Shown in pieces: positions 35 to 29,827 of a stretch of 35,611 nt of DNA. Source of the DNA: Reclinomonas americana ATCC 50394 (Eukaryota). Under the pieces are notes generated by a model that worked only from the letters and a program-made list of their open reading frames with translations, had not been told where the DNA came from and did not search any database. The stretch's first letter is position 1. The number at the start of each line of letters is the position of its first letter. The translations under genes and the position numbers were made by a program. The stretch is taken from the NCBI GenBank assembly GCA_048213135.1, contig PS015022.1:190638-226248 (forward strand). The letters are read 5' to 3'.

Positions 35-2190
35 GCCGAATTGATGCTGCAGCAGAGAGTGGCCGAGGTGCGTGCGGAGACGCAGCAGCTGCTGGCCGAT
101 CGCGAACAGCAGCACAAGGCGACGCTGGCCGACGCTCTGGCCAAGGTCGACGCCACCTACCGTGCCAAGATTGTGCAACTGCAGGAGGCCACCAAGCAGC
201 AAAAGTTGTGTGCTGCACCGTGGGAAGGGGAGGTGAACTCAGAATCACTTTTGTCTCATGCGTGTCAACAGGAGTGCACGCGATCAGCAGTTTGTCGGGG
301 CGCTGGAGGAGCGCAACAAGGCGATCGAGAAGCTGAATGAGCAGCTGGTGGCGGCGCGCCAGGAGCGACAGAAGCTGATTGAGGACGCACGCGCGCGACT
401 TGCCGAGATGCAGAAGCGCTACGCCGCATCGTCGTCTGCGGCGGCTGAGAACAGTGGCTACGCAGCCGAGGATGTGAAGTTGGTACGTCGTGGCGCATGT
501 GTGAGGACACAGTCAGTGCTTGCGCCAACTCACACGTATTTTTTGCAGGCCATGAATCGTATCTACGTCGACTTTGAAAAGTCAGTCGACAAGTCGGCGA
601 GCTATCCGAGTTTCGTGTTGTTGTGCCTTTCGTGCATGCATCGGCATTCTGACCTTTCATGCTTCTGCAGCTCGCGAAGTGTTGACAAAGCTGGTGGCCA
701 CCATCAAGAGCGTCACGGCGCGCTTCATGGCTGGAGAGCTGGTGGACGACGACGATGACGATGAGGAGGAGGACGAGGAAGAAGAAGAGGAGGAGGAGGC
801 GGAGGAGGAGGAAGAGGAGGCGCCTGCAGTGGCGGCTGCTGGCTCGGTGTCGGTGGGAGAGGCTGATGAAGATGAGGAGGAGGAGGAGGAGGAAGCGGCT
901 GTTGGCGAGGCCGTGCCGCCGCCTGTGGTTGCCGCAGTGTTGCCATCTCCTGTTGTATCGCCGCACGATGTACACGTGGTGGTGTCAAGTTCGGCGCCGA
1001 GCGCGCACCATGCGGTGCCGGAGCACGTCGCTGCCAGCAGCTCTGCGCCAGAAGTTGTGGCGGTCGAACAGCCGGAGGAAGAGGTGGCCGCGCAAGTGGA
1101 AGCAGAGGAGGAGGTGGTCGTGGCGGAGGAGGAGGAGGAGGACGAAGCGCCAGCAGAGACCTCGGTTGTCGACGCTCCGCGTGCGCCTTCACCCGCATCA
1201 GCACCTGCTCCGGAACCGGTGGTTGCCCCCGCTCCGGCTCCAGTGCCTGTGCCAGCTCCAGCTCCAGTGCCTACTGCCGCACCTGAACCAGTGCCAGTCG
1301 CGACGATTGCCGTCAGTCAGCCACCGCCACCACTGTCACCGCCACCAGTGGCACCAGCACCTGCTTCACCGGCTGGTGTCCGCGTGCTGTCGGTCGAGTC
1401 GGCGGCACCGGCACCGACGCCGGAGAAATCACCGCTGAAGACGGCCGATGCCGCAAGCGGTTTGTTTGGCACCGATGAAGACGCAGAGCATGTCACTGCT
1501 CCTCCGTCGGCCGAAAAGAAGCCGTCTGGAGCCGCCGCCGCCGCTGCAACAGTCAAGGCCAGCAGCGCTGGTGGACTGTTTGGCGACGGAGACGATGATG
1601 AGGCTGGAGGGATTTTCGGCGACGGAGACGCGTTGCGTGCTGACAGAATTTCCTTTTTGTGCTTTTATTGTTTGCTTGTGCTCACTGTTGGGCACTCTGA
1701 CAGTCCGGCGGAGCGCAAGCCAGCTCGCCCTGCTGCGTCTGCAGCCAAGAAGAATGCACCACCACCGAAGCAGTCATCATCATCGTTGTTTGGCGATGAC
1801 GACGACACGGAAGACATTCTCGGTGGATTGCCTGTTGGTGCGTTGACTTGGCAACCAGGTTCTCTCTCTCCCTCCTGTGTGTTGACGTCTTCTCTGCAGC
1901 CGCGCCATCCTCGTCATCATCGTCGTCCGGTGGTCGTGGGGCGCGCCGTGTTGTTGCCGAGGACACGGGCTTGGATGCGGCTCCTGTGGACGAGATCTTT
2001 GGTGATCCACTGGCGGCAACGGCCGCCGCCAACGCCGCAGCTGCAGCACCTCCACGAACGGTTTGTTTTCATCGATCGTCTTCTGAATCAAGTCCGTGTG
2101 TGGCTCACACTCTTTGGTGTCGTTGTTGCTGCGCAGCGCCAAGCCAAGGCTGCAGTGTCTACCATCTCCGACGACGAGTTGTTCAACTAA
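35..2190 (+). CDS. 5'-truncated FKBP15-like (WASH/retromer-associated) protein: coiled coil, conserved helical segment, acidic/Pro-rich tail with LF-acidic motifs
   Basis: Introns 205-271 (or 208-271), 483-548, 610-670, 1632-1703, 1838-1899, 2061-2136; stop at 2190. The spliced segment AEDVKLAMNRIYVDFEKSVDKSASYPTREVLTKLVATIKSVTARF resembles, from memory, the FKBP15 post-coiled-coil region (VKKIMNQVF..TIKMVT). The tail has LFGDDDD-type motifs. Confidence 0.6.
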
Positions 2191-2340
2191 ACCGATATGC
2201 ACCTGTCGCCGCTGTGACCACGAGACGAATGAAAAGGATTAATGTCTACAAAAAACAACTTTTGACGCATAGTGCACAGCTTTTTTTTACTTGGCTGTTT
2301 TTTTGTTGATGATGTTGATGGAGATACAGTGTGAGGTCGA

Positions 2341-5300
2341 TTATCTGCAAATAGAGAGTGATGAGTCAAGAGTTTCTGGGGAGCGGAGAGATGATGTGGC
2401 GAAACTGTGACCGTGATTCGTCGTTTTGATCAAAGTCTGTGTGTGCAAGGAGGGTGGGTGAGTCACTTGGACTGTACGGATCCTTTGCACCTGTGCAGCT
2501 CACACTCACCACTTGATTGCTCGGTAGCTTCAGGAGTAATGGGAGAATTGAGTGAAACGCACTTTTCACACAGGTAGGAGGCGAGACAACTCACCTTGTG
2601 GTGAGAAATCATCTGTGCGACAAGCAAGCATGCACAGTCAGCAAGTGACACCAAATAACGGAATGCAGACAACGAGACGACGCACCCATGGAGTCAAAGT
2701 CCGAGTTCGAGAGCAACTCATCCTCGTCGGCAGAGCCCACTGGCTGCCATTCGCGCTGCGCGGACTTGGCAAGTGCCTCGGGGACAGCTGTAAAGAGAGG
2801 TGAGACAGTGGAACCACGGCGGCACAAGGGTTGGAAGTTCACTGACCCGAGTCTTCCAAGTTGGCGACATCGGCTACGCATGGATAATGGGAGTCGTGAG
2901 CGACAGCAACAGTCAAGAGAGCGACGTGGGGAGACACGACTATGAACCATTCTCAGTGTTGTTGACTTGATCAAAGTCGGCGGCTGTTTTCACCGTGAGT
3001 AACTGGTGGTATCGAGCACACCATGCACACACACACACACACACCAAACGCACCGTACTCAGCACCTGGAACCTGCAACTGGGTCTGCTGCAATTGCTCC
3101 TGTGCCACCGGCTGCGAGGCGTAGTCCAGTCCATTTCCTGCACAAGAGAAATTAAGATGAAGAAAACCCCACACAAGCAACAACACTCAATACTGCAGAC
3201 CGAGAGTCAGCGTGTGTGCGAGTTCCAGGTGGTGCTGTTGCATGGCAGCACGCGAGCGCACAGAGAGGCACTTCCATGGCGCCGTAGAGGCGCGGCCACC
3301 GCTGCGCGCGGCCTTGGAGCACAGCTTGCGGGCGCGTCGGCGGAGGATCTTCAGTCGGCAAAGGTACTTGTCCGGCGCCTGCAGCTTCTTGCACTTGCGG
3401 TAGCGACGCTGTTAAGATGGTATGTGAGTGAAGAGTATGGTGTGATACCAGTGAAAGCTGCACAAACCAGTTGTTTGCGAGTGAGCAGCGAGCGCAGCGG
3501 CAAGCCACCTGCCATGATGAGGTGGTGAGAATAACATGAGAAACAACACCGCCACGCTGCAAGTCACTCACGTGATCGGCGGCTGCGGCCACGGCGAGAG
3601 CGAGCACGGGGGCGACGGGGAGCAGCATCGTCGGCTGCAATGAACAAGAAATGAGCAAAAAGCATTCGCTAGTGGTGTAGGGACAAGACGAACCGTCGTC
3701 ACCACCGCGGCGGCGGCGCAGCTTCTTCTGCGGCTTCTCGTCGTCTGCAACACACATGTTGGAGACACCAAAAAAACAAACAGGGAGTAACACACTCTCC
3801 GATCACTCACCATCATCGTCGCCGGCTGCAGGAGCAGCACGACGGCGTCGTTGGCGTCGGCGAGGCGGGTCTGCAAGAGCGGAGATCAGAGTTGTGGTGA
3901 GGGGTGTTACGCGTGTTGACGAAAGCATACCAACGTCGTCATCGTCCACGGCCAGACTGCCGGCCGACTTGCGCGGTCGTCGTCTCGCTGTGTTTCCACT
4001 TTGGTGAATGACTGACCATCAACGCAAGGACAACAACAAATATCGCGTACCCGGCATATCATCAGCATCGTCTGTGGAAGGCATCTTGGGTGCCGGGGCC
4101 ACAGCGTCGGCATCGTCGTCCTCGTTCAGGCTGCGACGCGGGCGACGGCGGGAGCGGCGGCGACGGCGGCCAACGCTCTCGTTGCTGTCGTCGTCCTGGT
4201 CAGCGTCGCGCACCTTTCTCGTGCGTCGTCTGCGAGCTGGCCTGTCGACCTCGTCGTCTGCACGTGCATCAACACCAGAGTGAGGGACACGGCAACAAAC
4301 TAATGCACACACGTGTTGAGTTGTGCTCACCAGGGGCGTCGTCAGCATCGCGTGAGCGACGAGAGCGGCGCTTGGGAAGCGCGGCGGCATCGTCACCATC
4401 CTCGTCGTTGGAGGCGCGACGACGGCGGCGGCGGCCGAAGCGTTCCACGGACTGGTCGCTCTCCTCGTCGACATCCCGGGAAGCGCGACGACGACGACGG
4501 CGCTTGGGCGCAGCATCGTCACGGACTGCAGGCACTCGTGAATTAGCAAGTCGCCACTATGATGAGTGCGAGGTCTTGAACGCAACTGCTGCTGTCGCCG
4601 TCCTCGTTGTCGTCGCTCTGCTTGCGGCTGTTGCGACGGCGGCGGCGTGGGCGCGCATCGGCGTCTATGTTGCAATATGTCAGCGAACGACTTGAGAGTG
4701 GTCACAGGCAACGACAGAGAAAGGGGAGGCGAACCGAGGCCGTCAGCATCCGAGTCGCGGTTGCGGTTGCGATTGCGTCTGCGACGGGCAACTGCGAGCA
4801 CAACAAGATAAAAGTCAGCCAGAAATGCGACAGGGTGGGAAATGAATATATATGATCTCATCCACGAGCCTCGTGCACGCAGAGCTGCAGGGGGGAAGAG
4901 GAGATGAGAGACAAGTGACCGTGCGGCATGCAAGATGGAGAATCACAAACCGCGATGCAGGCGTCCAAGTTCTTGGGCAAGTCGGCGCACTGAATCTGCG
5001 TGGATGTGAAGCGCATCAGCCAATAACACCCACCAGTGAAACACTGTGAAGGGTGACATACCAGAAACATGGCGGCTGGGCTGCAACTCGCCACCTTCTT
5101 CTTCGGCGGCATCACCGCCTTCCTGGCGAGGACGACGGCGGCGACGGCCACCAGCCTGCTCCTCGTCCTGGTCACGCGAGTCACGACGGCGGCGACGGCG
5201 GCCACCAGTCTGCTCCTCGTCCTCGGCACCACCGCGGTCACGGCGACGGCGGTCGCGCATGTCCGAGACGCGGGACGCTGTGCAGGGGGTTGTCAGCAAC

Positions 5301-7062
5301 GTGATAACGAGCAGCACGCAGCACACTTCAACCACACGTACCGAGGCGGCGACGGCACTTGCGGGCCTTGGCGCGCCAGATCTTCAGCTTGCGCACGGCA
5401 GTGGAGAGCGTGCGCTTGGCACGGCGGAGCAGGTTGCGCGCCTTGCGGTACTTGCGGCTCATGGCCGAGTTGGCCGTGTTAGAGGAGCTGCGCTCCTGCT
5501 CACGCCACTGCTGCACACGCTGACGCATGCGCATCAGGCGGCGACGAGCCGATACGACGGCGCGCTTCAGACGCGAGTTGTTGACGCGAATGCGGCGCAA
5601 CAATGCATTCTGGCGCTTCAGTCGAATCACTGCGCGCTTTGCGTTGCGTCGGACATCCTGTGAATCGCCACCAAAGATCAGCACTGTGTGTGTGTGTGTG
5701 AAGGTGCGATGTGAAGGCACGGGTTTTTACCTCGTCCTCGTCCTTCAGCTTGCCGTAGCTGCCGGTGCATGCGCGGGCCTGGCGAGCAGCACGCCGCAGC
5801 CGCTGGTACAGGTTGCGGTTCTGCTCCGTGCATCCCACACCGGCTGCAAATGTCATCGGGGAGAAGATGAGCAACACACCGCATTGAAAGGAGTTTTCGC
5901 ACGCACCCTTTCGGTACTTGACAAGCATGTTCTTGAAGAGGTGCGTCTGAGCCTTGTAGTGCTGCACAGTGCGACGGAGCTGCGATACGCAAATGTCATG
6001 CGCCGGGCAGAGGAGGGGAAGAGATGTGCCCGCGTCTCCCCCACGCAACATGCAGGATCTCACGCCACTGGTGCATGATCTTTTGTGTGTACCGTGAAGT
6101 CGCAGCGTTGCGCCCGCCATACGACTGCGAGCCACCATACGACTGCGAGCCACCACCATACGAGCTGCGGCCAGAAAAGTCGTCGTTGCCAAACGACGAC
6201 GCGGAGGAAGAGGGGGGCGGAAAGTACGACGGAGTCCGCGCAACCACACCGCCACGCACGCCACTCCTGCCTCCCAGATTGTCAAACGGATTCGAGGCAA
6301 ACGGATTGCGGCTGGCTGCTGCTCCCCCGCGGCTGCCAACACCAGCACCGCCACCGGTAAAACGATCGCCACGACGCAGTGGATCCATCAGCGGATCCTC
6401 ACCCGTCGGGTCAATGGGAGGCGGATCCAGCGGGCCACCCATTCCATCGTCGCCCAGTCCATTGCCATCGACATCGGAGAAGGCGTCGCCGTAATCTGCT
6501 GACAGGCACACGAATGATTGTCACGATCAGCGGTGTCAATGAAGAAACGAAAAGAGTGAGCGTGCGACGCACTCTCGTCGTCGAGTTGCGCGAGAAGTTG
6601 CACTGCGCTCATGACCATCGAATCAGTGCAAACTTATGTCACACTCACAGTGCAAAGTGGACCGCGCACGCACCCAAGTCAGCATCTGTCAATGAGCTGC
6701 TGATGTCCTCCTCGTCGTCCATGTTTGACGCTGCTCAACGATGATGAGAGAGTGGAATGAATGAAAGACGCACACAAAATCGGCGCAACGTCTGAGCAAG
6801 TCATCGTCGATGTTGCCACCTTGCTCAGCCCACACTGCTGGTGACTCTGTGCCACACATAACGTTACACACGCACACAAAGAGAGAGAGACACTCACGCG
6901 CGCGCATACCATCAACAACCTGCACACACACACACAAAGGAAATGATCAGTGTCTCTCTCTCTCTTTGTCACATACAGACAGGCACACACCTGCGAGTGC
7001 ACCGCCACTGCCACTGTCGCCACCACGAGCGACAGTAACAGAAGCAGCACTACTCTGCGCAT
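2341..7062 (-). CDS. Secreted low-complexity protein with alternating Arg-rich and Asp/Glu-rich blocks, ~30 exons
   Basis: ATG 7062 starts a signal peptide (MRRVVLLLLLSLVVATVAVAVHSQ). The frame can be followed through ~29 introns, mostly phase 1. It contains YGGSQS repeats, basic helices and DD..RRRRR modules. The last exon and stop (2341, alternatively 2366) are uncertain. Confidence 0.7.
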
Positions 7063-7191: not shown

Positions 7192-10100
7192 ATGGAGACC
7201 GCCAGGAGGAGGAAGAGAAGACAGGCGCTATTATGCGTGGCAGTGGCACTTGTCGTCGTCTTGCTGTGCGCATGTGTCACTGTGGCAAGTGGAGCGCGTG
7301 TGCGTGCCTCGGCGGCTGCTGAGTCGCTGAAGCGTGCGCGTCTGTGTGGTCGCGGTGGTGGCTCGTGTGGGTTTGAGGGGTACTTGTACTTTGGGGATTC
7401 GTGGGATACGCGGTCGGAGCGCAAGGCGCCGGCGCTTAATCCGTGCGATTATCGCGAGGTGGGCGCGAGGTGGCGAGTGCATTTTGTGGAGGTTGGTGGG
7501 GATCGCAGAGGGAGGAGGAGGGGGGAGAAGGAGAAGGAGGGAGAGATGGGGAAGGGAGGGGAGAGGGAGGGGAGAGGGAGGGGAGAGGGAGGGGAGAGGA
7601 AGGTGAGAATGTATGCATTGTCTGTGTACGGGCGGAGGCAGTGTTGCTTTGTGTGCGTGTGTGTGTGTGTGTGTGTGTGAATGTTACATGTGTGTGTGTA
7701 CAAGCGCGTGTGCAAGTTGTGTATGCAAGTGTGTGGAAGTGTACTTGTATCGCTTTATGAATCACTGTGTTTTTGTTCCGCAGTATGTTTGTGTACATGC
7801 GTTTGTGTGTATTTCGCTGTGCTTTAGACTGTGTTGCTGCATGTGTTTGTGTCTGTGTGTGCTGATGGAGATGCGTGTTCTGCAGGCGCGTGAAGAGGAC
7901 AGTGTGTTTGATATCTCCTTCGTGTCGACGCGGATGCGGGTGAACTGCGCGGTGAGCAACGATGGCACGAGGCGGCTGAGCTCGCAACTGGAGGCCATGC
8001 CGATGCGTATTGTGCAGAACCACGTTGCGTCTTTGCATCATCGTGTGTGTCTGGCGAGCGCGTGCTCATGCGGTAGTGTGCATGCAGGCGACTGGTGTGG
8101 TCAAGAGCGTTCACTTTCACAAGAATATGCCCCGCGAGGGTGTGGCCATGGCGTCGTCGTTCTTGCACTCGATCAATCTGCACGTTCTTCCGTCGGTGGA
8201 GGCCGCAGCGTCGCCAACGGAGCAGCCTGGTGAGCAAGGCCAGTTGCTGTTTCTCGACACGTCGGATGGGTCGTCGGAGCCGTTGCTTCGCCTGTGCGTT
8301 GCTTTGAAAAGAGAGGTTATCGATTACCTGTGCTCATTTAGAGATGCAGTCTCACATCCGAAGCCGACGGCGAGCACACGGTGGTGCGCCACCAGTTTGT
8401 CAGCGTCTCCGAGTTCGAGGTCAACGAAAAGGGCATTCACAAGCTCGAGTTGCGTGGGTGTACCGATCCAGGAGTGTGATGTATCACGCAGTTGCACTCA
8501 CTCAAATATCTGCACAACAGAAACAGGCTGCTGAAGAGCACGTACTCGGAGGAGGCACAGACCACAGCCAAGGTGCGTCTCGGATTACTGGCATCAATTT
8601 TCCGACATGGTTGTTGTGCTCACTCTTCTGCAACAGGGAGCGGCCACGGTGCGCGTCGATTCGTATGGCGTGACAGTCGAGGCCAGTGGCAGCATCAAGG
8701 TATGAGACGGAGAGAAAGAGTGCGGGTTGTGTACCAGCACTCTTCATCGTCGTTTGACGATGTGTGCAGGTCAAGGCCGGTGACCCGTCGGCCGCCGGTG
8801 AAGTCGGCGTGCGATACGCCAAGCCACAGCTCTTTGTCGCCACCTCGTCGAGCGAGGGCGCAGTGCAAGGTTTGAATTGCTTGTCAAAGTTGAGTGATAC
8901 TGTTCCTTAACCGTCGGTTGTTGATTGCAACAGAAAACAAGGCCGCCGAGGAACTCAAGGACACCATGTCGGCCAATCAGGTAATGTGTCAAATGCTCGC
9001 CGTCCTCGTGCGTGTCGGTGTGCTGACTGCCTCTTGACGATGACAGCCTCCTGGTTTCGGACTCGGCCATCAAATCAAGTTCACCGTGAAGCGTGTCTTG
9101 ATTCCTGAGGATCCCGCTCCCGACGTCCTCGATCTCGCCGAGTACGTGGAAGACGATTTTTATGCGCCACTAACATTGGAGGAGACGATGGACTTTGCAT
9201 TCATCGCCCTCTCGCCGAGCGAACTCACCGCCGTGGTAGAGCAGTTGCGGCAACACTTCAATGCCAGGCAAAAGTCTTTCGAAAGGTGACTGACAGCGTA
9301 CCATCGCGTGTGCAGAGCTTGCAACGGTGAGCGCACGCCGGCCGAGGCAGCCGCACTGATCATGCCACACACGTACAAGCCAGAAGCCGTGACGCATGTG
9401 GTTCGCCTGATTGAGCGCGTGCAACACAACTGCAGTGATGAGGCGCTGCAGGCGGTGCGTGTGGCACTCGTGTTGTTGTTGTTGTTATCCGGAGTTGATG
9501 CTGACTGACTGTGATCAATGCAGCTATTTGTGGCAGTGGGCGCACAGAATCACCCGGTGGCACAAGAACACTTGGTGCGTTTCGCGTCTGCACACGCGAC
9601 CAACCATCGTATCCGTCACCACGCGCTGGTCGCGCTGGCACACGATCGAGATGGCCATCGGTTTGGGATTCCAGAGTCGACTGCCGACACGATTCACAAG
9701 TTGCATTCGTTGTGGCGGCGCGATGCGGACACGCAGGTGAGCGCACTGGAGGGGAGGGGGGGAGAAAATGAGAGGGAAAGGATGCAGTGTGCGAGTTGGG
9801 TGCAACGCGCAGTAGGGAGAGTGAGAAAGAACGTAGTATGTGCATGAGATGTGCGAGGTGAAAGGAGAAGAGAGGGCGGTGCACTGAGCGACTTACCATG
9901 AGATGCTACACAGTTGTGATGAGAGTGAAAGAAAAGTGGTGCATGAAGCGAGTTTACAAGCAGTGCTCAGAAAGAGGAAAATTTGCCTTACCCTCTATCT
10001 GCATCACTCACTCTCTTTCCTCCTCTCGCAGGTGCTGCTGACTCTGACGGCTGCCATTGGCACCCGGCAGACGGCAGAGGGCTTCGAGCACGTCATCTCG

Positions 10101-12521
10101 GCCATTGAGGACGAAGCGCGTGTGCTCCTTCGCCAGCAACACCACGCTCCACCAACACCGGGCCATCTGGCGCACATGACCGTGTTGGTGCGCTCGCTAA
10201 GCAATGCCGGTGCTCCGCAGGCGCTCTCCTTCCTCGAAGCATGTGTTCGTCAGCATCGCGACAATGCTGTGAAGCGCGAGGCTGTGACGGCGCTGTCACG
10301 CATTGCCGCTCCCGAATCGACTCACGTGCTGATGAGTTTGGCACACGACGCCTCTGTCGACCACGATGTTCGCCTGGCCGCCGTGCAGTCGCTGTCGATG
10401 CGGTTCGTCCATTTTATTCTTGAGTGGTGTGGTCTGTCGTGTGTCGCTCACAGTGCGCCACAGCAACACGATGCGCCGACACTTCAATCGCACGCCGGAG
10501 GAAGCGTACGAGGCGGCCATGCGTGCAGAGCCACCACGAGACAGGAGTGACGATGATAACGACAACAATAACGATGACCAGAACGACGATGAGCCTGCGC
10601 AGGACGGTGGTGATGGCGACTCGTGGCAGCTGAAAAAGTTGCGCTTTTCTGCGTACTCTGCAATGTCGAGAGTCTTGCCTCAACAGTGCTTCCCCGTGGT
10701 GCGCACAGAGAGTTTCAGAGTCCGCAGTTTGGCAAGGTATTGACAGCAAGCTGATGAACTCGCTGTGCTTCGCTTGCTGACAACTGTTTGTCTGCGCCAC
10801 AGCACATTTTGAATGGCTCCTTCTCTGCCAGCATCGACATGAATGCGTCAAAGAGGTGTGGTGCTTTATATTATTTGCGAGGAGTATTGTGGACTGTGTG
10901 TGTCTCACCCTTTGTTCTCTATGTGTGTATCGCAGTGGCGATGACACGCTGCAAATGTTGCGTTGTATGGGCGACCATTGCAACAGTGACAACTCGCACT
11001 CATTCCTTCCCACTTGCAGGTCTGGTGTGGCGAATGTGGAGATGCCATTCCAGGTCTGCCTCTCTTGCGCGTGTAGACGACTGCTGTGAGAGTGGTCTCA
11101 TCTGTCGGGATGCATATGCAGGTGTGGAAATTCCACATGAAGGCATTCGAGGCCACAGCACGCGCCACATACCCTTCTGAGGAGGGCGCAGATGCCACTG
11201 TCGAGTTCAATGTGCAGGTTCACACAGGAGTGAGGACTCTATCTGTGATGATCACCACCCTCACCGCGCGTTTGTGCACCACAGTCATTCGGCGTCAGCC
11301 TCTTCCAGGAGGTGTTCAACCGCCAAGTGCAACCGGTGCAGACGCAAGACACATGCAATCTCGGCGCCGAGCCAACTCAAGATGTTGCGTCATGCACTCA
11401 CCCACAGTCTCATCCTCCACCGATCAACCAACATACTGTGCCATCACACAGGAGGAGATTGCCAGCAAGGAGCTCGTCAAGTCGGTGACGAAGAGCAACC
11501 GCAAGTGCTTCAGTTGCGGTGACAGCGATCGCAAAGTGGGAAGAAGTCAGTCACTCACGTTGGCGATTTCTGTGTCCGTGCAGTGGGCAAGATCTGCATC
11601 GGCATGCGTCTGCACGCCACCATGTCACTCAGCGCCAATCTGTACCTGGCGCCATTCGGCTGTGTGCCGCCGGCGGTAACAGCTGGCATCCGCGCGGCAG
11701 CGAAAATTTCGGTATGTCCGGAGGTGGAAGAAGAGGAGATGACAACCATGCGCTGTTTACTCATGGTTGTTGTTGTGTAGATCAGAGCCGAGGGCGGTGT
11801 TGGCACTGCAGCGGCCAAGGGCGGAGTGCGCGGAAAGCTCACGCTGGTCGATATTGCGTTGCCGTTCTTTGTCCGTGCACGCGCTGATGGCGCCTCGTGC
11901 ATGCGAGGCGTTGCGCAAGTCTAGTTGCGTCGGGCGGCGAGTGGTTGGGAGGAGAAAAATGGGGCACTGAAAAAATGTGTGCTCTCGCAGCCCGAGTGGT
12001 GGCAAGTTGAGTGTGTGGTGGGACGCCACTGGCGGTTCGGGTGGGTCGTCGGAACAAGCGCTGGTGGCCGTCGACGAGGACGAGGAACTGGTGGAGGCTA
12101 TTCCGCTGCTGGTCCCCATTGCAGCTCGTGTGGGTGGCATGTTGCTGAAGCACGCGGTGAAGAAGGTGGCCAAGAACATGCTCAAGTCGGGGTTGAAGAA
12201 ACTGGCCAAGAATGTTGCGTCTGTGTGTTGCTTGCATGCGCAAGACAAATGTGACTTACCGAGCGTTTCTTGCCGCGCAGCTGGTTGGAAAATTGCTCAA
12301 GGGCTCCCAGGTGTGTGGGATTGCATGGTCTTGTTGTGTAATCAAGTTGTACTCACTCGTCGCAGACGCTGTGGGAGTGGCACACGCCACATCGCGAGTT
12401 GAATTTGATGGCAGTGGGCCAGTGCACGGTGGAGGATCTGGCCAACTATTCGGGCGGCAACGGCGGTGGTGATGGTAATCGCGGAGGAAATGATGACGAC
12501 GGTGGTGGTCAGTGGTGGTGA
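7192..12521 (+). CDS. Vitellogenin/large lipid transfer protein (LLTP)-like secreted protein, ~26 exons
   Basis: N-terminal hydrophobic signal, then a beta-rich region, a helical/HEAT-like domain (LFVAVGAQNHPVAQEHL; VRSLSNAG; VKREAVTALSRI; VRLAAVQSL), and a C-terminal beta-sheet (IRAEGGVG..KGGVRGKLTLVDIALP). Stop TGA at 12521. Two junctions (~8270-8349, ~10607-10687) are ambiguous. The family call rests on architecture only. Confidence 0.6.
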
Positions 12522-12657: not shown

Positions 12658-15029
12658 ATGTCTCTCTCCCCTTCCGCGTCGGCATCCATGAGTTGCGACA
12701 CCACCCCACTACTCTCATGCGAATTGAAACTCAACTGCCTCTCACCCCTCTCTCCTCCTCTGCGTGCACACACAGGTGTGGTGGATGGCGAGGTGAGTGT
12801 GTCCGCGCATGCATTTTTCCCTGCATGCTCACGTGCGCGCGCTCTCTCTCTCTCTCTTACATACGCGCACACACGTAGGTCATCTTCCGCTCCACTCGTT
12901 GCGTGGTGTTATTCGTGAATCGTCAGCACCAACTCACACACAAATTTACCCGCGCGCCCCTGCATGCAGTGCCGGTTCCGCCGCCGCCCGCCGACATGCT
13001 CCCGGGCGACGCATACTCAACCTGGCTCATTCGCCGCATGCGCCAGCGAGACCACGAACAAGGCGAGCATCCGCTGCTGCTGCAACACGAAACGCAACAG
13101 CAGTGGACTGGCACGCAAGTTGCTCAAATGGCAGAGAACGTTGCCCGTCGCCTGCGTGCGTCGCCGACCGAGGGTGGGGCCAGCGACGGGTGCGGCTTGG
13201 TGGCTGGCGAGACCGTGGCGCTGGTGGCCACCACCTTTGTCCACTTTCTGCCTGTTGTGCTCGGTGTGAGCGAAGCGGCATGCACTCTGTGTCCACTGCC
13301 TGCCATCTCCGCAGGTGTGGCAGTTCGTCATCATCATGAGGGAGGCACCTCGAGTACATATGCTCACTGTGCGCAACAGAGGACGAGCTGATGGCGTACT
13401 TTACGCAGACCCACACGCGAGTGGTCATTGTCAACGCGACGGTGCTGGCCAAGACCCTTCGCGCGATTCTTCGGCTCGGCGCGCAGCCGTCGCAAGTCCG
13501 CAGCGTGTTTGTCATCTCGCCGCACGGCTTGCACAGCGACAGTGAGTGGCGCGAGTCGGAGGCGGTGGCGGATGCCGTGGCGCAAGGTTTGTAAGTTGCC
13601 GAAGAGAGGTGCGAGAATGCCACCACCACCACTAACTGCGCACACGCTGCATAGGCATCGCGGTGCACCCGCTGAGCGTGCTGCTTGACGACGTTCCTGG
13701 GTGCCACGGGCAGGCCTTTAAGCGCGAGAGCACCGTTCTGGAGGAGGACGTAACGCTGATCATGTTCTCAAGGTGCGCTCTGCGTTTTCGAACAAACCGC
13801 TGCTTTGCATGCATGTCTGATGAGTCCCACAGTGGCACCACTGGCCACCCGAAGATCGTGATGCACACGCAAAAGTCGATTCGCAACTTCCTCGTCAACG
13901 CCACCTCACTGGCCTGTGACAATGACAATCTTGTCAACTCGGCGTTGCGTGACTGCGTGTGAGATACGGGAGGAAGAATGAGCATGAGGTGACACCTCCT
14001 CCCCTGCAGGTTCTCCTTCCACGTCTCGGGCGTACTGCTGTCACTCTCCGTTGCGTTTCACACTCTTCTGCATCGCCTCGCTTGCTGCTGAGTTGTTATG
14101 GTGCAGGGATGCGTGCACGGCTGCCGGACCACGTTTTTCGAGATTCCACTGCCTCCCAACCCGCGCTTGCTGCTGGAGCTGCTGGTCAAGTACCAGGCCA
14201 ACTTTGTGTTTGTTTCGCCGGCGTCGATTCATGCGTTTTGCGCGCTGCCTGATGTTGCGGGGGGAGGGAGAGGGAAGGGGGAAAGGGGGAAAAGGGAGAG
14301 GGAAAGGGGGAGAGGGAAAGGGGGAGAGGGAGGGAGTTTATCTTTGTGTTTGTTTCGCCGGCGTCGATTCATGCGTTTTGCGCGTTGCTTGATGTTGCGC
14401 GGAGGGAGAAGGGAGAGGGACAGGGAGGGAGAAGGAGTTTATCTCACCTATAAAATTAATGAGGATTGCAGCTGCCTCCGTGTCGTTGAAGTTGCCACAT
14501 TGCTTTTGGATTGGCAGACACACAGAGATGGTCTTTTGGTGCTCGTTCTTTCTTCAGGATCACGGGGAGAGAGTCTTGATTCACCGGACTGCCTTCCTTC
14601 TCAACTTGCTGTCGCGACTCACCTCGGTTGTCGTGCTGTTGCAGCTCGAGAGCTTCGACCTGAGCCACCTGCGGCAGATTATGGTCGGCGGTGCGCTGCT
14701 GAACTTGGATCAGGCGCTGGAGGTGCACCGTCGCACGGGAGTGCGTCTCATGCAGGTGCGTCATCAACGTAGCGCTGCTGCACGCTGCCGGCTGTGTTGT
14801 TTCACCTGCTCCGTTGCATTTCTCGTGCGCAGCTGTGGGGCATGACCGAGATCCTGGTGGCCACTGCGGACACGGATGCTGCCGATGCGCCCGTGGAGTC
14901 CATTGGCTGTCTGCAACCGGGTGTGGAGATGAAGCTGGTGGATCCTGTCGACGGAACCACCGTCGGCGTCGGGGCGATTGGTGAGATTTTCATCCGGGCG
15001 CCGGGAGTTGCGTTGGGGAAGTGACAGAG

Positions 15030-15065
<36 letters not shown>

Positions 15066-16023
15066 GGCGCTGGCCACTGCAAGTGACACATGGGACTATT
15101 GCTTTCGTTGCTTGATGGAAACGAGAACATTCTGGTCATGGGTCCGTTGTCTTTCTTCGTTTGCGATGTGTGTAGGTGGTACAACAACAACAAACTTGCA
15201 AATCCGAAAAGCTAGACAGTTGCATGATGATCACCATCTTGTGTGAGCACCAGAAACTGAGTGAGACATCACGGAACAGTAAGAAAAAGTCGAGATGCAT
15301 AATGCTGCCGCTTCTAGTGACCACACTTATTCCTTTCCCTCCCTTCCCCAAAGCGCAGAACATGCTCGGCTACCGCGATGCCCCCGAGCTAACCGCGGAG
15401 ACCATTGTCGACGGTGGCTGGGTCCGTACCGGCGATCTCGGACGAATCGACCATCGTGGGCTCGTGTTCTTCGAGGGCCGAAGTCGCGTCTCCTTGCGTG
15501 TGGTCAGTAGTGTGGTGTCGAGTCTTCTCACCACCACCTCTGTGCGCACAGTCAAGGAGATGATCCGCGTGCCCATCTTCCCGATGTTCGCTCCGACCGA
15601 CATTGATATCGTGCTGCAACACCATCCGGCCGTCAAGGAGTGTGCCAGTGCCGGACTGGTGCGTCGTGCCACCGGTTACGACGTGCCGGTGGCCTTTGTG
15701 GTGAAGCAGGCGTCGGTTCGTGTTGCGACAATGCAGCAACCTTGAGAGGACGATCGCTCACAGAGTGCTTGCAGCATGCGAACGTGACGGAAGACGAGCT
15801 GATCGAGTTCCTTCGGCCGCAGCTGGTGTGTGATACCCTTGGATGAACGCAGCATGCAGAGTTGCTCACTGCTGTGTTGTGGTGTCTCCAGCCGGTGCAG
15901 AAAGTGCCAGCGCACGTGGTGTTCCTCCAGCAGATGCCACGCAGCAGTGCGCTGGGCAAACCGATGCGGCACATGTTGAGGGAGACGCCGGAGGCCAAGG
16001 CCCAGTTGAGCGACCTGCTTTGA
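12658..16023 (+). CDS. ANL-family AMP-dependent acyl-CoA ligase, 4-coumarate-CoA ligase/luciferase-like, 15 exons
   Basis: Spliced motifs VIFRSTLP, IMFSSGTTGHPK, FHVSG, QLWGMTE, GEIFIRAPGNMLGY, GWVRTGDLG, GRIKEMI, HPAVKE, PRSSALGK. No PTS1 (ends SDLL*). Confidence 0.9.
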
Positions 16024-19451: not shown

Positions 19452-22400
19452 ATGGCAAGTGGGAGTGGTGTGCCGCGTGAGTTGCGTGTCTCTCTCTCAT
19501 TGTATTGTTGTCAGATGCATCATCTCCATCATTCTCACATTGTGTGATTCGTTCCCTATGTTACTCTCCTCTCACTCTCTCGTGCAGTCATGACCACGAT
19601 GTTGGTGATGAGGAATGTGCGATGCGCCTTGTCAAAGCACTGTCTCGTCCATGCACCCGCGCTCTGCAATCCAAACTCGAGCAAGTGCTGCCGGCGTTTC
19701 TCGATTCGTATCCTGGTGTGAATCACGTCGCCGAGTGGTGCAAGGCGCCGAGTGAGCGGGATGTGCGGTGAGTGTGTGGGGAGAGATGTGGAAGCACGCG
19801 ATGGCAGGATGCAGATGGAGATGTGAAAGAGAGAGAAGAGAAGAGATTGCCACAAGCAAGCGGCAGATGGTCATCCCTTTCTTTTCATTGTCTCACCACA
19901 CGGACTCCTCATTCTATCCCGATGTATGCCCCCCCTTTCTTGTCACACACATGCTGTCGCTCACCAACATCCTCTCTTTCTTTGTGCCTTTCCCCGCATG
20001 CAGAACCATTCCAGACGGAGTGGAAATGTGTGTCCAGTTGAGCGAGATTGAGCGGAAGACGGTGCGCGAGTGGCATCAGCGAGGCCAGCTGCACGACTGC
20101 TTTTCGTTTGATGCGATGCTGTGCTGCTCGATCTTGCTGCTGGCCGGTCATCGAGAGCACCCTGGGGACGAGCCAGATCGTATGATTGCGGAGAGCGATG
20201 TGGTGAGTGTGAAATGGGATGAGGAGGAGTGTGATCTCCCTCTCTATGTGATCATGCCTCTCATTCTCTTACTGTTACACAGCGCAATGCGATTGAGCGA
20301 ATGAGGGAGGTGTTTGAGCAGGCGAGTCCTGCCCGAGCTCGTGCACTCTTTGTGCCTCTGCTCGGTGGCGGAGGAAGAGGAGAAGGTGAGTTGCACCGGC
20401 TTGTGCGACAGCTGCAGGTTGGCAGGGATGTGGAGGAGGAATTGGTGGTGCAGCTGAACGATGCCCGTGATGGTGAGTGAAGAGACAAGAGATGGATGGT
20501 GCTTGTGGTTGGATGGTTGGATTGAATGTGGAAGCTGATGCTGTCTGGTTGTGTGTGAATGCAGGTGCACTGACTCAAGCAGACCAGTCATCACCACCGT
20601 CGGTGAACATGGAGCAAGTTGAGTGAATTTACACGTAGAGATTGTCGCTTGCAGATTTCTCATCGTTTCTCACGTGTATGCTGGTTGATCAGATGCGAAT
20701 GGAAATGCAGGAGACCATGCGTGCAGAGATGGAACTCATGCGACAACAGCTGGTCACAATTATCATGTCGCCCTCTTCTCCCTCAGCTGCAGGTGTGTTC
20801 CGTGATGGACCTTCATGGATGTGCTTTGCTGTGCTCACTCATTCCCTCTGTGCCACACAGCACCCGACAACAGTCGCTCATCAAAGACACCGCTCATCGC
20901 CCGCACCGTCAATCCAGTGACTACATTCCGTTTCCCCAGTCGGTGTGCGCTGGCTGCCTCTCTCGCCACGCGCATCGTGGATGCTGTGGAAGGTTGGTTG
21001 TTCCTTGTCTGCCCCCTTGCATCTCCGCACACGTGTGTCTCATGATGTTGTCTGGTGCTGGATGATTCTTCTCAGCACACCAACCGATCATGGTGGTGCT
21101 GACGGGCGATGGTGGCACTGGCAAGTCATTCCTGGCCGAGCTGCTGGTGACCGAGTTGCAGGTCACTCGCCGATGGAAGGGATCAGCCGTGTCGGTGGAG
21201 ATGCGTGGTCATGTGGGTGATGCGAGGGAGCATATGAAGGTGTGCTGACGAACATGCATGTTGTCTTTTCCAGTTGTGTCTTCTCCTCTCGCTGCTATTC
21301 TGACTCTGCTCTCTCCTTGCCACATGCTGCAGGCAGAGAATGCACTGGGCGAGTGTCTGCGTGCCTTTGTTTCGGCACAGATGCGAGTGGATGAAGTGGA
21401 GGGACGAAGGATGGCCGGTCAGGTGGATGCACTGCTGGCGAGTGGTGAGGCGGAACCAGCACGTCGTCTGGTGCGACAGCTGATGCACGCCTCGGGTGGA
21501 GTGATGGTGCTGGACAATGTGGGATCGGCGGAGCAAGTGAGGAGTGTTGTTCGATGTGCTGATGAGGGTGCGTGGCTATTAGAGAGAATCTGGGATGGAT
21601 GTTCTAATCCTGACTTGATGTGCATCATGCCGGTGCAGGTGGAATGGTGGCACCGACTGTGGTGGTGACGACTCGGTATGGACATGTGGCAGATGAGATT
21701 CGTGACTCGATGATGCACGAGGCGGAGGTGGAGTGTGTGCGAGTAGAGAGCGTGGAGAACGAGGATATTGTGCAGCTGGTGGAGGAGCGACTGCTCCACA
21801 AGGTGTCAGTGGATGTGCGACGACGGATTGTGGAGGCACTGGAGAGTGGACAGCAGGAGAAGAGTGCACTGCGAGTGAGTGCTTGTGTTGGGTAAGTGAG
21901 TGCGTGAGTGAGTGCATGACTTGGATGAGAAGCCTCACTCGTCTCTCTGCTTCTCTTCTTCGTCCTGCAGCTGGTTGTTGTCACAGTCAGCAGCACAGCT
22001 GGTGGGCGCGCGACTGGAGGAGGTACTGAGTGGCATTGGTAGTGATGCGCTGTCGCAGTTGCTGGAACGCAATGTGATGTCACAGACAGCGGCTGTACGT
22101 CGTCTGTTGGTGCTGATCACGGCGTGCAAGGAACTCGGCTTGCCAGTGACAGTGGCACTCGCACGAGTGGCTTTGAGTGTGTTGCGAGTGATTCCCGATA
22201 TGACAACGGCAGTGGGCGGTGATGATGGTGGTAAGCAGGCTGCAGTTGAAGAAGATGAGGAGGCGGCAAGTCGACTCTTGGAGCTGGGTCAGTGTGTGCG
22301 TCGACTGCGTATGCATGAGCTGGCTCAGGAGAGGCGACGACATGCGCCTAAGGTGGTGGGTGAGCGACTACAGTTTGGCGAGATGAGTGAAGAGGAGGAG

Positions 22401-23825: not shown

Positions 23826-24251
23826 ACGATAAATGAACCTGTTCACTCTGTCGTTCGCCTCTCCTCGAGTGCTCTTTGACGGTCTCTCTCAACGTTTCAC
23901 CGATGTTACCACTGGTGTGTGTACTTCGACACATGCACATACACGCACAAGTCTCTCTCCTCGGCGACACGCAGTTCTGCCATGTGAGCCAGCATGCTAC
24001 ACACCGACGACGTCGTGTCCCAGTCAGAGTGTGATTTGCTGCTTGTTGAGTAGGAGTGAGCTTGTGTGTTCTCTATTCTGTTCTCTGTCTGTTTCATTCC
24101 CCACTGTGCGTGTGTGCAAGAGAGAAGGAGAAGGAGCGAGTTGTTTCATTTCTCCGCTTCTTATTGTGCCACAGAGAGAGAGAGAGAGCGTGCCATTCCC
24201 CTGTGCATCTGTCAGTGTACTGCTTGTTCTTCTTGCTGTTGACGCACCATC

Positions 24252-27200
24252 ATGGCGAGTGGGAGCGGAGTGCCGCGTGAGTTATGTGTCTCTCATTGCG
24301 TTGTAGTCAGATGCGTCATCATCATCATCATTCACACATTCGTTTCCTGTCATTCTCCTCTCTCTCCACTCTCGTGCAGTCATCATCACGATGCTGGAGA
24401 TGAACAATGCATGATGCGTCTTGTCAAAGCACTGTCTCGTCCCTGCACCCGCGCTCTGCAATCCAAGCTTGAGCAAGTGCTGCCGGCGTTTCTCGATTCG
24501 TATCCCGATGTGAATCACGTCGCCGAGTGGTGCAAGGCGCCGAGTGAGCGTGATGTGCGGTGAGTGTGTTGGAAAGATGTGGAAGCACACGATGGAAGAT
24601 GCAGATTGGAGATGTGAATGAGTGAGAAGAGAAAAATTGCCGCAAACGGTGATGCACTTGTCATCCCTTTCTCCCCATTCCCGCACTCTTCATCTCCCTC
24701 CACACGGACTCCTCATTCTATCCCGATGTATGCCCCCCCTTTCTTGTCACACACATGCTGTCGCTCACCAACATCCTCTCTTTCTTTGTGCCTTTCCCCG
24801 CATGCAGAACCATTCCAGACGGAGTGGACATGTGTGTCCAGTTGAACGAAGAGGAGTGCCAGCTGGTGCGCGAGTGGCATCAGCGAGGCCAGCTGCATGA
24901 CTGCAGTTCATTCGATGCGATGCTGTGTTGCTCGATCTTGCTGCTGGCGGGTCATCGAGAGCACCCGAGAGACGAGCCGGATCGTCTGATTCCAGCTGGC
25001 GATGTGGTGAGTGTGTTGGAATGAGTGGAGATGGGAAGAGGAGAGAGAGGAGTGTGGTCTCCTTCTCTGTGATTGTGTCTCTCACTCATTGTGTGCAGCG
25101 CAATGCGGTTAAGCGAATGAGGGAGGTGTTCGAGCAAGCAAGTCCCGCACGAGCTCGTGCACTCTTTGTGCCTCTGCTCGGAGATGGAGGAGGAGAAGGC
25201 GAGTTGCATCAGCTTGTGCGGCAGCTGCAGATTGGCAAGGAAGTGGAGGAGGAATTGGTGGTGCAGCTGAACGAGGCTCGCGATGGTGAGTGAAGAGAGA
25301 GATGGATGGTAATTGTGTGCGGATGATTTGATTGAATGTGGAAGCTGATTCTGTCTTGGTTGTGTGTGAATGCAGGTGCACTGAGCCAGGCGGATCCATC
25401 ATCACAATCGGTGAACTTGGAGCAAGTTGAGTGAGAATGCATGAGGAGGGCAGTCGCTTGCAGATGTCTCATTGTTTCTCACTTGCATGTTGATTGATTA
25501 GATGCGGATGGAAATGCACGAACGAGACGACGCGATGAGCGTCTCTCCTCCTTCTCCCTCAGCCGCAGGTATGTTCCATGATGGATCCGCACGGTAGTGC
25601 GTTGCTATGCTCGCTCTCACTCACTCACTCTCTCTCTCTCTCTCTCTCTCTGCTCACTCTCCTTGTGCCACACAACACCAGAGAGCAGTCGCCCACCCTT
25701 GACACCACTCATCGCCCGCACCGTCAATCCAGTGACCACATTCCGCTTCCCGAGTCGGCGTGCACTGGCAGCTTCACTCGCCACGCGCATTGTGGGTGCT
25801 GTGGAAGGTTGGGTGTTCCTTCTCCTTCTCCCTTCCTTTCTTCACCACATTCGTGTGTCTCATCATGTTGTCTTGTGGTGGATGATTCCTGCGCAGCACA
25901 TCATCCTATCGTGGTGGTGCTTACGGGAGATGGTGGCACTGGCAAGTCGTTCCTGGCAGAGCTGCTGGTGACCGAGTTGCAGGCCACGCGGAGATGGAAG
26001 GGATCGGCCGTGTCTGTGGAGATGCGTGGTCATGTGGGTGATGCGCGGGAGCATGTGAAGGTATGCTGAGGAGCAAGCATGTTGTCTTTTCCTGTTCTGT
26101 CTTCTCCTTATGCTGACATTCTGACTCAGTCTCTCTCGTCGTCATGCCGCAGGCAGAGAATACACTGGGCGAGTGTCTGCGTGCCTTTGTTTCGGCACAG
26201 ATGCGAGTGGATGAAATGGACGGACGAAGGATGGCCGGTCAGGTTGATGCTTTGCTGGCGAGTGGCGAAGTGGAGCCAGCACGTCGTCTCCTGCGACAGT
26301 TGATGCATGCATCGAGTGGAGTGATGGTGCTGGACAACGCGGGATCGATGGAGCAAGTGAGGAGTGTTGTTCAGTGTTCTGATGAAGGTGCGTGTAATCA
26401 TGAGAGAGAATTCGTTCTTGGTCAGATGTTTGATCCTGACTTAATGTGCATCATGCCGGTGCAGGTGGAATGGTGGCACCGATTGTGGTGGTGACGACTC
26501 GGTATGGACATGTGGCAGATGAGATCCGTGACTCGATGATGCACGAGGCAGAGGTGGAGTGTGTGCGAGTGGAGAGTGTGGAGAACGAGGATATTGTGCA
26601 GCTGGTGGAGGAGCGACTGCTCCACAAGGTGTCAGTGGATGTGCGACGACGGATTGTGGAGGCGCTGGAGAGCGGACAGCAGGAGAAGAGTGCACTGCGA
26701 GTGAGTGCTTGTGTTGGGTGGGTGGTGTGAGTGAGAGTAAGAGGTGCGGATGAGAGGACTCACTCATCTCTCTCAATTCTTCATGCAGCTGGCTGCTGTC
26801 ACAATCAGCAGCAGAGCTGGTAGGCGCGCGGCTGGAGGAGGTGCTTATCGGTGTTGGTGACGATGCGCTGTCGCAGCTTCTGGAACGCAATGTGATGTCG
26901 CAGACAGCAGCTGCACGTCGCCTGTTGGTGCTGATTGCGGCGTGCAAGGAACTCGGCTTGCCAGTGACTGTTGCACTTGCGCGAGTGGCACTGGGCGTGC
27001 TGCGTGTGATTCCCGATGTGGCGGTGGCTGTGGGTGGTGCGGATGAAGATGAGGAGGCAGCAAGTCGACTGGTGGAGTTGGGTCAGTGTGTGCGGCGACT
27101 GCGATTGCATGAGTTAGCACGGGAGAGGCGACGGCGTGCGCCTGAGGTGGTGGGCGAGCGACTGCAGTTTGACGAGATGAGTGAGGAGGAAGAGCGAAGA

Positions 27201-28658: not shown

Positions 28659-28937
28659 TAGTGTAAAAGGCCGCATCTCTTTCGAATTCAATTTCTCTCC
28701 ACGCCGCAGCGTGCACGTCGTGGTTGCGCCTCAGCAGGTCTATGCGCATACTCGACGATAACAAGGACAACCACTTGCACTGAGCATCACGTGACCACTA
28801 CCGACGACGCCTTCACTGCTTTATTGTCTTCTTTTCCCGAATTCGATGTGCCGTGTACGATCGCAGAAAATNNNNNNNNNNNNNNNNNNNNTCAGGTGGG
28901 AGGAGAGAGAGAGAGAGAGGGAAGGAGGGATAGAGAG

Positions 28938-29035: not shown

Positions 29036-29068
<33 letters not shown>

Positions 29069-29326: not shown

Positions 29327-29328
<2 letters not shown>

Positions 29329-29340
29329 CGTTCCACGCAC

Positions 29341-29827
29341 TGCTTCCACATCTGCGGACTGGCAATAGGCTGCACCGGAGAGATACACACATGTCTTGGC
29401 AAGCGACTCGGGGTAAGCTCCAACAGGCCCTGCAAACACGCACACACAAACACACACAAGAGAGTGAGTTGAGAGTGTGTGAGAAAGAGAAGAGAGGAGT
29501 TGTGTGACATCGGTGATGCAATACGCGGGTGAAAAGCGACTGAGCAGAGAGTGTGTGTGTGGGTGTGAGAGAGAGAGAGAGGAGGGAGAGGCTCTGTGTG
29601 TGTGTATGTGCGCGTGCGTTGAGAGAGAAGAGATGCGATTCGCGCACACGCACGCAACGATGAACACGAGCACCGCGCAAGAGCGCTCCTCCTTCTCCTC
29701 CTTCGTGCTCGCGTGCTCTTTGTGAGGCGACTTGAGTGTCGATGAGCGCGTCAGTTGCGTGGCATGAGAGGAGCAGTGTGGCCAGTGACATGATGGCGAT
29801 GAGGAGACACACAGAGGTGCGCGTCAT
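29341..29827 (-). CDS. 5' exons (signal peptide and N-terminus) of the class 3 lipase, in inverted orientation
   Basis: Exons 29827-29659, 29539-29525 and 29429-29341 give MTRTSVCLLIAIMSLATLLLSCHA...AYPESLAKTCVYLSGAAYCQSADVEA. The AAYC motif is typical of the Lipase_3 N-terminus. Confidence 0.75.

Follow-up and report, generated by a model that had tools for sequence, protein, structure and literature searches.

In textbook splicing the 5′ splice site is cut five bases upstream of a G that pairs first with C4 of the U1 small nuclear RNA (snRNA) and later with U6. Shifted-register 5′ splice sites are reportedly known from human, where Roca and Krainer are said to have described them in 2009 at a handful of atypical sites. 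Here we report on the 5′ splice sites (donors) in a stretch of 35,611 nucleotides (nt) from Reclinomonas americana ATCC 50394 (contig PS015022.1, positions 190,638 to 226,248; the whole stretch is called the window), in which 30% of the curated introns open with GTT and carry the conserved G at +6 instead of +5. The closest described systems are human. According to the available text of two studies, U1 can bind one base downstream of its canonical register, and U5 and U6 define the cut (PMC11162779, PMC4856993). As far as the available text of the second study goes, the validated non-canonical registers combined account for about 1.5% of human 5′ splice sites, and the register with a bulge at +2/+3 for 68 predicted (54 curated) of 201,541 sites (PMC4856993, Tan et al. 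2016). The donors reported here are like the human shifted register in that the consensus bases lie one position downstream, the cut stays at the GU and a G at −1 is dispensable. They are unlike it in their frequency, 25 of 84 introns, and in their tail, which is GCGT here and of the AAGU type in the human test site. With the human bulge register they share a donor written as GU, one U and the normal tail, but they never have G at −1, and this speaks against a bulge.

The second donor class of the window, with G at +5 and referred to as normal, has its nearest likeness in the G^GTGCGT(G)-type donors (^ marks the cut) of Mamiellales, Thecamonas trahens, Mastigamoeba balamuthi and Entamoeba, and shares with these systems a CTSAC branch motif (PMC2483917, PMC3879977 and the Roy & Bowser 2022 preprint, in their available text). 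In that text, supplements aside, these accounts make no mention of a second class shifted by one base. They pose the same question, whether U1 changed to match the donor. In the portion of the Roy & Bowser 2022 preprint that is available, the U1 of Entamoeba has a changed recognition sequence and a U1 candidate of M. balamuthi has an ACGUAC core that matches C at +4, and Thecamonas and five Mamiellales species with GYGCGY donors have kept the standard U1. For U6, a non-canonical register with the G at 4 nt was described at a single human site, the tandem donor of STAT3 (Kramarek et al. 2024, PMC11162779, available text). The same question of the distance from cut to G arises in both cases; there the G is one base closer, whereas here it is one base further away (6 nt) and in about 30% of introns. 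Donor populations with two classes have been described that share one register and differ in the side that pairs best, whereas the two classes of the window differ in register by one base. No abundant GTT-shifted donor class in any organism was found by a full-text literature search, which had supplements outside its scope. The novelty, as judged from the sequence, would be that a known rare mechanism serves as a main class, with the simple rule G[G/T]TNNGT.

The window was GC-rich (about 57%) and gene-dense, with many short introns per gene. Its gene content was taken from Pfam and open reading frame (ORF) analysis, and eight gene models were tallied. The curated intron list combined a two-class parse with a hand-built model of an AMP-binding gene and a few manual corrections, and ambiguous introns were excluded. 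Excluded were, in the Vitellogenin_N/HEAT-like gene, the 10638/10720/10737/10856 region and 11200/11218; the one intron of the isochorismatase fusion (16389 or 16401); in the minus-strand gene, 3549, 3044, 2594 and whatever follows them downstream; in the plus-strand lipase gene, 30414, 30829 and 31744/31750; 29524; and everything beyond 31853. The 84 curated introns comprised 56 with a normal donor (G at +5) and 25 (30%) with a shifted donor (GTT, G at +6); two of the remaining three had another extra base (GTAATGT, GTCGCGT) and one was of another kind. G at +6 in 25/25 shifted donors and at +5 in 56/56 normal donors follows from the class definition. T came next in 20/25 shifted donors (+7) and 43/56 normal donors (+6), and all 25 shifted donors fitted GTT[GAT][CAT]G. 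Shifted donors were present in seven of the eight gene models (3/6, 3/19, 8/20, 6/14, 2/10, 2/10 and 1/2 introns). Taken with the tests below, these counts show from genomic sequence that a GTT-shifted donor class exists in the window, that it is abundant and that it is cut at the G of GTT. The original prediction had counted about 27 such donors in about 105 introns, about a quarter, and had called them a main class and not a rare atypical site. Both statements were borne out by the curated proportion and by the spread over gene models, and every donor that was checked matched the predicted coordinate and motif. The predicted donor 29524 (GTATTGC) was not retained, as it needs a 15-nt micro-exon (29525-29539) that was judged unnecessary.

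The two classes differed in the base before the cut. G was found at −1 in 51 of the 56 normal donors and in none of the 25 shifted donors, which had A (13), C (7) or T (5) at this position (Fisher p=2.7e-16). The set obtained with a donor-blind parser, described below, gave 34/43 and 0/17, respectively. Position −1 was absent from every scoring function. Since G precedes the cut in normal donors and never in shifted donors, both can be read as one heptamer, G[G/T]TNNGT, which is cut before its first GT. The predicted class was therefore real, but its description as a normal donor with one extra base after GT was not the best one, with G at −1 in 0/25. The missing −1 G and the G[G/T]TNNGT rule, as they appear from the sequence, are new here and were not part of that prediction. 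A at −1 of shifted donors (13/25) resembled A at −2 of normal donors (21/56). The tail was tighter in the shifted class, with GC in 20/25 compared with 14/56 normal donors (p=5e-6), as would be expected if the lost pair with C8 of U1 had to be compensated elsewhere. C stood at the +4-equivalent position in 21/25 compared with 21/56 (p=1e-4).

Within the normal class, the full GTGCGT tail was present in 3 of the 5 donors without G at −1 (8294 on the plus strand, 6572 and 29340 on the minus strand) versus 10 of the 51 donors with it. This excess is the same pattern of compensation as in the shifted class.

Motif counts, strand bias and gene parsing were used to examine the shifted donors as splice sites. 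GTTGCGT occurred 21 times in the window, about three times the expected 7.25 ± 2.59, and none of 100 shuffles reached 21. Over 28,154 nt of known gene orientation, the ratio of sense to antisense copies was 16/3 for GTTGCGT and 31/7 for GTGCGT. No bias was seen when the extra base of the heptamer was A, C or G (0/0, 3/3 and 4/7, respectively). Gene models used 14 of the 16 sense copies of GTTGCGT as donors; the other two, 23333 and 23391, lay inside a long exon. A dynamic-programming gene parser was run donor-blind, with every GT scored 0, and its final codon scores were retrained against the trinucleotide composition of introns. The retrained parser recovered 13/22 claimed donors on the plus strand and 2/5 on the minus strand, and 12/22 and 1/5 with a stiffer intron penalty. 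Most of the misses were in the AMP-binding gene, with exons down to 17-19 nt, and a donor-blind parse that was forced to a single gene read through introns there. GTTGCG began 12 of 84 sense donors of the blind parser compared with 1.23% of 2,281 sense GTs (binomial p=5.8e-10), and 0 of 49 antisense, that is spurious, donors. An unsupervised two-component mixture built from the donor-blind parse consisted of GTG.GT (about 0.65) and GTTGCGT (about 0.35). A strict branch site and a YAG followed downstream of GTTGCGT in 10/21 cases, of GTGAGT in 29/59, of GTGCGT in 20/50 and of all GTs in 27%, which is modest support. No in-phase normal GT was present within 45 nt of 16 of the 25 shifted donors. 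The claim that donor 11924 removes an in-frame TAG at 11922-11924 was confirmed in the sequence; a donor 3 nt further downstream would retain this stop codon.

Homology fixed the cut in the AMP-binding gene. The hand-built model had an uninterrupted frame of 598 amino acids (aa) with the hallmark motifs of the family and 14 introns, six of which began with GTTGCG and one with GTCGCGT. The frame with all hallmark motifs closed only with the GTTGCG and GTCGCGT donors, and the exons were confirmed by Pfam. In the junction test each donor was moved by 3, 6 or 9 nt both ways and the products were scored against seven distant homologues. The score fell by 31 to 55 at 15483, by 17 to 90 at 15007 and by 10 to 45 at 14254, and the normal control junctions 13773 and 14756 responded alike. 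The original prediction had held several donors to be fixed by conserved protein motifs, among them IRAPG^NMLGY (here at 15007) and GR-I-KEMI (here at 15483). The exon before 15007 aligned to its last residue with positions 318-378 of the 384 positions of the Pfam AMP-binding family. Donors 13944 and 14050 sit in a variable stretch and were uninformative by homology, and donor 12692 was without homology support, the N-terminus of the protein failing to align. Frame restoration by intron removal was homology-scored in this gene, and judged by frame and coding score only in the others. In the minus-strand lipase-like gene, only phase 1 at donor 29658 joined the signal-peptide exon to the frame ...LSGAAYCQ..., and a GTGCGT 5 nt downstream was out of phase.

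Two further features of the AMP-binding gene concern its donors. At 15716 and 15722 on the plus strand, a normal donor (GTTCGT) and a shifted donor (GTTGCGA) lie in phase and 6 nt apart. The homologue alignments slightly preferred 15722 (+23 in sum), and on this sequence comparison the gene may contain an eighth shifted-type donor at 15722. In intron 9, a second copy of the last ~52 nt of the preceding exon and of its shifted donor lies 140 nt downstream on the plus strand (14202-14295 and 14342-14435). Over 94 nt the identity is 83%, the exon part being nearly identical, and the copied donor, GTTGCGC, might serve as an alternative 5′ splice site or as a decoy.

Apart from their 5′ end, shifted introns were indistinguishable from normal introns. 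The median length was 72 nt compared with 70.5 nt, the acceptor was CAG in 24/25 (TAG in one) compared with 50/56, and the strict branch motif CT[CG]A[CT] was found in the last 48 nt in 18/25 compared with 48/56. All 25 shifted introns started with GT. By these sequence features they are genuine U2-type GT-AG introns. The class was also stable in the tandem P-loop/TPR paralogs, where two pairs of shifted donors stayed shifted, one of them despite a change of the tail from GCGT to ATGT, and eight pairs of normal donors, matched by their order in the gene models, stayed normal. Behind donor 8449 on the plus strand, tandem acceptors (CAACAG^AAACAG, 8515-8526) lie 6 nt apart, both in frame.

Other kinds of intron were considered and rejected. 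U12-type (minor) introns have an extended donor of the RTATCCTT type, and none of the 25 donors resembled it. An all-against-all blastn of the 84 introns linked only tandem paralog pairs and microsatellites. With no shared sequence beyond these, the shifted introns are not copies of an introner or of a transposon-derived family. A model in which the exon keeps the G and the intron runs from TT to AGN was compatible with the protein length; it is non-canonical at both ends and retains the TAG at 11922-11924, and was rejected.

How the two classes could arise from one heptamer is proposed as follows. U1 would dock on G-[G/T]-T-N-N-G-T, in which NN is most often GC, always in the same register: C9 of U1 would face the first G, A7 the T at the third position, and C4-A3 the GT at the end. 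With G as its second base, the heptamer has its first GT at positions 2 and 3, and the cut would follow the initial G, giving the normal G^GTNNGT. With T there, the heptamer itself opens with GT, and the cut would lie one base further upstream, giving ^GTTNNGT. Relative to the cut, U1 would sit one base downstream in shifted donors; it would only mark the region, and U5 and U6 would later fix the cut at the only GU available. Whatever the position of U1, the distance from the cut to the conserved G is 6 nt and not 5 nt in these introns, about 30% of the total, and the later contact with U6 would in consequence have to accommodate one base more or form without base pairing. We consider it moderately probable from the sequence that the heptamer common to both classes is read by U1 in one fixed register, shifted relative to the cut in GTT donors, and that no base is inserted or bulged; the U1 register and the U6 events are the parts that we infer. 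A more far-reaching reading, that the major spliceosome routinely works in two registers (about one third of introns) through a changed or second U1 5′ end and a U6 contact that accepts an extra base, is held only tentatively.

A number of results weigh against a fixed, shifted U1 register. Nearest-neighbour duplexes were computed for the standard U1 5′ end in the form given by PMC4856993, with random GTs as background. With this U1, 73% of normal donors formed duplexes stronger than those of 90% of background GTs. Shifted donors had a median of −1.5 kcal/mol versus −2.4 kcal/mol for background, none of the 25 beat 90% of the background, and the best duplex paired +1G with C9 in just 3/25. Two trial variants of the U1 end, one with G at nt 5 (the core of the M. 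balamuthi candidate) and one with GC at nt 5-6, each placed +1G opposite C9 in 17/25 best duplexes; they separated shifted donors poorly, with 12% and 4% beating 90% of the background, respectively. G at −1 was rarer than the shift predicts, with 0/25 against 11/56 at position −2 of normal donors (p=0.015), and GTCGCGT at 15483 fits a bulge better. The sample is narrow, one window with eight gene models, in which the splice junctions are predicted from DNA sequence and gene models. Several models other than that of the AMP-binding gene rest on coding statistics, which are weak in GC-rich DNA, and the first donor-blind parsers, in which a codon model was set against out-of-frame codons, were noisy and recovered 4-5 of 27 claimed sites. 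As modelled, pairing with the standard U1 fails to explain the shifted class, and the idea of a modified U1/U6 or of variant snRNAs, put forward in the original prediction, would stay alive, short of proof. We regard it as unlikely, yet a serious rival, that real donors are read by changed machinery, such as a U1 with a co-evolved 5′ end (for example G at nt 5, which would pair with the C of the GCGT tail), a second U1 complementary to GTTGCGT or a protein factor. It is serious because the C at the +4-equivalent position (21/25) cannot pair with nt 5 of the standard U1, because pairing with that U1 is poorer than for background GTs, and because G at −1 is rarer than expected. The class is also nearly invariant, and GTTAAGT, which would fit the standard U1 best, is absent from the curated donors. 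The Entamoeba U1 and the M. balamuthi candidate would be precedents and the Thecamonas and Mamiellales species, which prefer C at +4 with a standard U1, speak to the contrary (Roy & Bowser preprint, available part), as do the two trial variants, both of which also failed to separate shifted donors from background.

A bulge would leave the standard U1 in its canonical position with one U of GUU looped out, as in the human +2/+3 register, which was validated in cells according to the available text of PMC4856993. The shifted motif is exactly the normal tail behind GT plus one U, and GTCGCGT at 15483 is readable in no other way. In a bulged duplex, however, the last base of the exon would still face C9 and the preference for G at −1 should persist, contrary to 0/25 compared with 51/56, and +1G was placed on C8 in none of the 25 best standard-U1 duplexes. 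We therefore judge a bulge to be improbable. Modelling artefacts or unremoved introns, that is retained, decoy or pseudogene sequence, would be the alternative to a functional donor class. In their favour, the donors are predicted from DNA, many frames stay open in GC-rich DNA so that introns can be read through, and the donor-blind parser missed 9/22 sites on the plus strand, mostly in the AMP-binding gene, where exons are tiny. Against them stand the enriched motif and its strand bias, the recovery by blind parsing and the junctions fixed by homology, as well as the dichotomy at −1, which played no part in scoring. An exon running 3 nt further, with a GC-AG intron starting at GCGT, would leave the frame intact, and introns of the GC-AG type do exist as a minor class. 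Such a donor adds a residue missing in the homologues, at a cost in score at 15483, 15007, 14254 and 12898 (Table 1), retains the stop codon at 11922-11924 and, as GCGTNN, is without the +5 G seen in all 56 normal donors. The homologue scores, the TAG at 11924, the missing in-phase GTs and the blind tests make an artefact very unlikely and a GC-AG intron scarcely credible.

The gene models of the window and the introns with shifted donors are listed in Table 1.

Table 1. Gene models and shifted-donor introns of the window; GC at +3 and shift −3 give the change in homologue score when the donor is moved, and ^ marks the junction.
Feature	Position	Strand	Donor	Remarks
Coiled-coil/acidic gene	1-2190	+		
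Arg-rich gene	about 7062-2566	−		
Secreted Vitellogenin_N/HEAT-like gene	7192-12519	+		
AMP-binding, 4-coumarate-ligase-like (acyl-CoA-ligase-like) gene	12658-16023	+		
Isochorismatase + 2OG-oxygenase + GST fusion gene	16345-18915	+		Single exon
Tandem P-loop/TPR paralog, copy 1	about 19450-23825	+		
Tandem P-loop/TPR paralog, copy 2	about 24250-28658	+		
Class-3 lipase-like gene	starts 29826	−		
Class-3 lipase-like gene	ambiguous introns at 30414, 30829 and 31744/31750	+		
Intron	205..271	+	GTTGTGT	Blind-parser pick; doubtful, in-phase GTGTGC 3 nt downstream (208)
Intron	610..670	+	GTTTCGT	Blind-parser pick; no in-phase normal GT within 45 nt
Intron	1632..1703	+	GTTGCGT	Blind-parser pick
Intron, Vitellogenin_N/HEAT-like gene	8024..8087	+	GTTGCGT	Blind-parser pick
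Intron	8449..8526	+	GTTGCGT	Blind-parser pick; acceptor 8520 or 8526
Intron	9244..9315	+	GTTGCGG	Blind-parser pick; no in-phase normal GT within 45 nt
Intron	10957..11019	+	GTTGCGT	Blind-parser pick; no in-phase normal GT within 45 nt
Intron	11384..11451	+	GTTGCGT	Blind-parser pick; neither in-phase GT nor GC within 45 nt
Intron	11513..11583	+	GTTGCGG	Doubtful, two-class gene model only
Intron	11924..11990	+	GTTGCGT	Blind-parser pick; donor G completes TAG 11922-11924
Intron	12214..12280	+	GTTGCGT	Blind-parser donor; acceptor 12280, or 12365 if a 30-nt exon is skipped
AMP-binding intron 1	12692..12775	+	GTTGCGA	Needed for 598-aa frame; doubtful, two-class model only
AMP-binding intron 3	12898..12969	+	GTTGCGT	IFRST^LP; P0007 local score GT 25, GC at +3 22 (weak preference)
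AMP-binding intron 7	13944..14009	+	GTTGCGT	Needed for frame; homology uninformative (GC at +3: +5 in sum)
AMP-binding intron 8	14050..14106	+	GTTGCGT	Needed for frame; homology uninformative (sum 0)
AMP-binding intron 9	14254..14644	+	GTTGCGG	GT best; GC at +3 −10, shift −3 −22
AMP-binding intron 11	15007..15358	+	GTTGCGT	IRAPG^NMLGY; GC at +3 −24, shift −3 −17 (sum, 7 homologues)
AMP-binding intron 12	15483..15551	+	GTCGCGT	Extra base C; EGR^IKEMI; GC at +3 −38, shift −3 −47
Intron, P-loop/TPR copy 1	19481..19587	+	GTTGCGT	Blind-parser pick; paralogous site keeps GTT
Intron, P-loop/TPR copy 1	20618..20692	+	GTTGAGT	Blind-parser pick; paralog donor identical
Intron, P-loop/TPR copy 2	24281..24379	+	GTTATGT	Aligned to 19481; tail GCGT to ATGT, GTT kept
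Intron, P-loop/TPR copy 2	25426..25501	+	GTTGAGT	Blind-parser pick; paralog alignment
Intron	6731..6789	−	GTTGCGC	Doubtful, two-class gene model only
Intron	5962..6049	−	GTTGCGT	Blind-parser pick
Intron	4526..4586	−	GTTGCGT	Blind-parser pick
Intron, lipase-like gene	29430..29658	−	GTTGCGT	May end at 29540 if a 15-nt exon is real

An Rfam scan of the window returned no family at the gathering score, and thus no snRNA is present in it. The tandem duplication on the plus strand (19380-23825 and 24180-28658) has a period of ~4.8 kb and comprises a 10-intron P-loop gene with TPR_10/TPR_12 domains; segments of the two copies are 74-97% identical, and introns are kept about as well as exons. The few long introns (295-394 nt; 7492-7885, 9737-10031, 14254-14644 and 15007-15358, all on the plus strand), as against 55-110 nt for the others, are taken up by purine-rich GGGAGAGGGA-type low-complexity stretches and by GT/CA microsatellites. 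Runs of N are present at 28872-28891 (20 nt), 30273-30292 (20 nt) and 34323-34993 (671 nt), with long CA/GA microsatellites on either side. The lipase-like gene on the minus strand, which starts at 29826, enters the first of these gaps and is probably incomplete in the assembly.

The isochorismatase fusion ORF encodes 857 aa with isochorismatase, AlkB-like 2OG-Fe(II) oxygenase and GST domains. Its best protein match, among marine transcriptome proteins, was 47% identical. The first two domains are paired at comparable length in marine transcriptomes and ascomycete fungi, the GST C-terminal domain being additionally listed in a few of the fungal matches, and shorter two-domain relatives are mostly bacterial. 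Proteins of the window had no close match in the collections that were searched. A TPR exon matched bacterial-type TPR proteins only, and the N-terminal AMP-binding exon had no protein match among 326 candidates. A 58-aa AMP-binding exon matched eight distant AMP-binding proteins in a representative search (from a nematode, a chytrid, a smut fungus, a locust and unnamed sources), and had no match among solved structures. A search for related loci in metagenome contigs gave 203 pattern matches, none of which was confirmed.

If about 30% of donors are shifted genome-wide, R. americana would offer thousands of natural test cases in which the positioning of U1 is uncoupled from the choice of the cut. 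They would test whether the helix formed with the ACAGAGA box of U6 can slide, and the frequency would predict either that an snRNA has co-evolved or that this spliceosome is tolerant in a way that others are not. Should the reading in two registers be true, the organism would be a natural, genome-wide system for studying how the cut is measured from the helices of U1 and U6. Gene prediction programs trained on GTNNGT donors would mis-annotate about one third of exon ends here and in relatives, each at the cost of a reading frame, and this may be one reason why searches returned no annotated protein from this genome. The rule G[G/T]TNNGT, with the cut before the first GT, would be directly usable in annotation pipelines.

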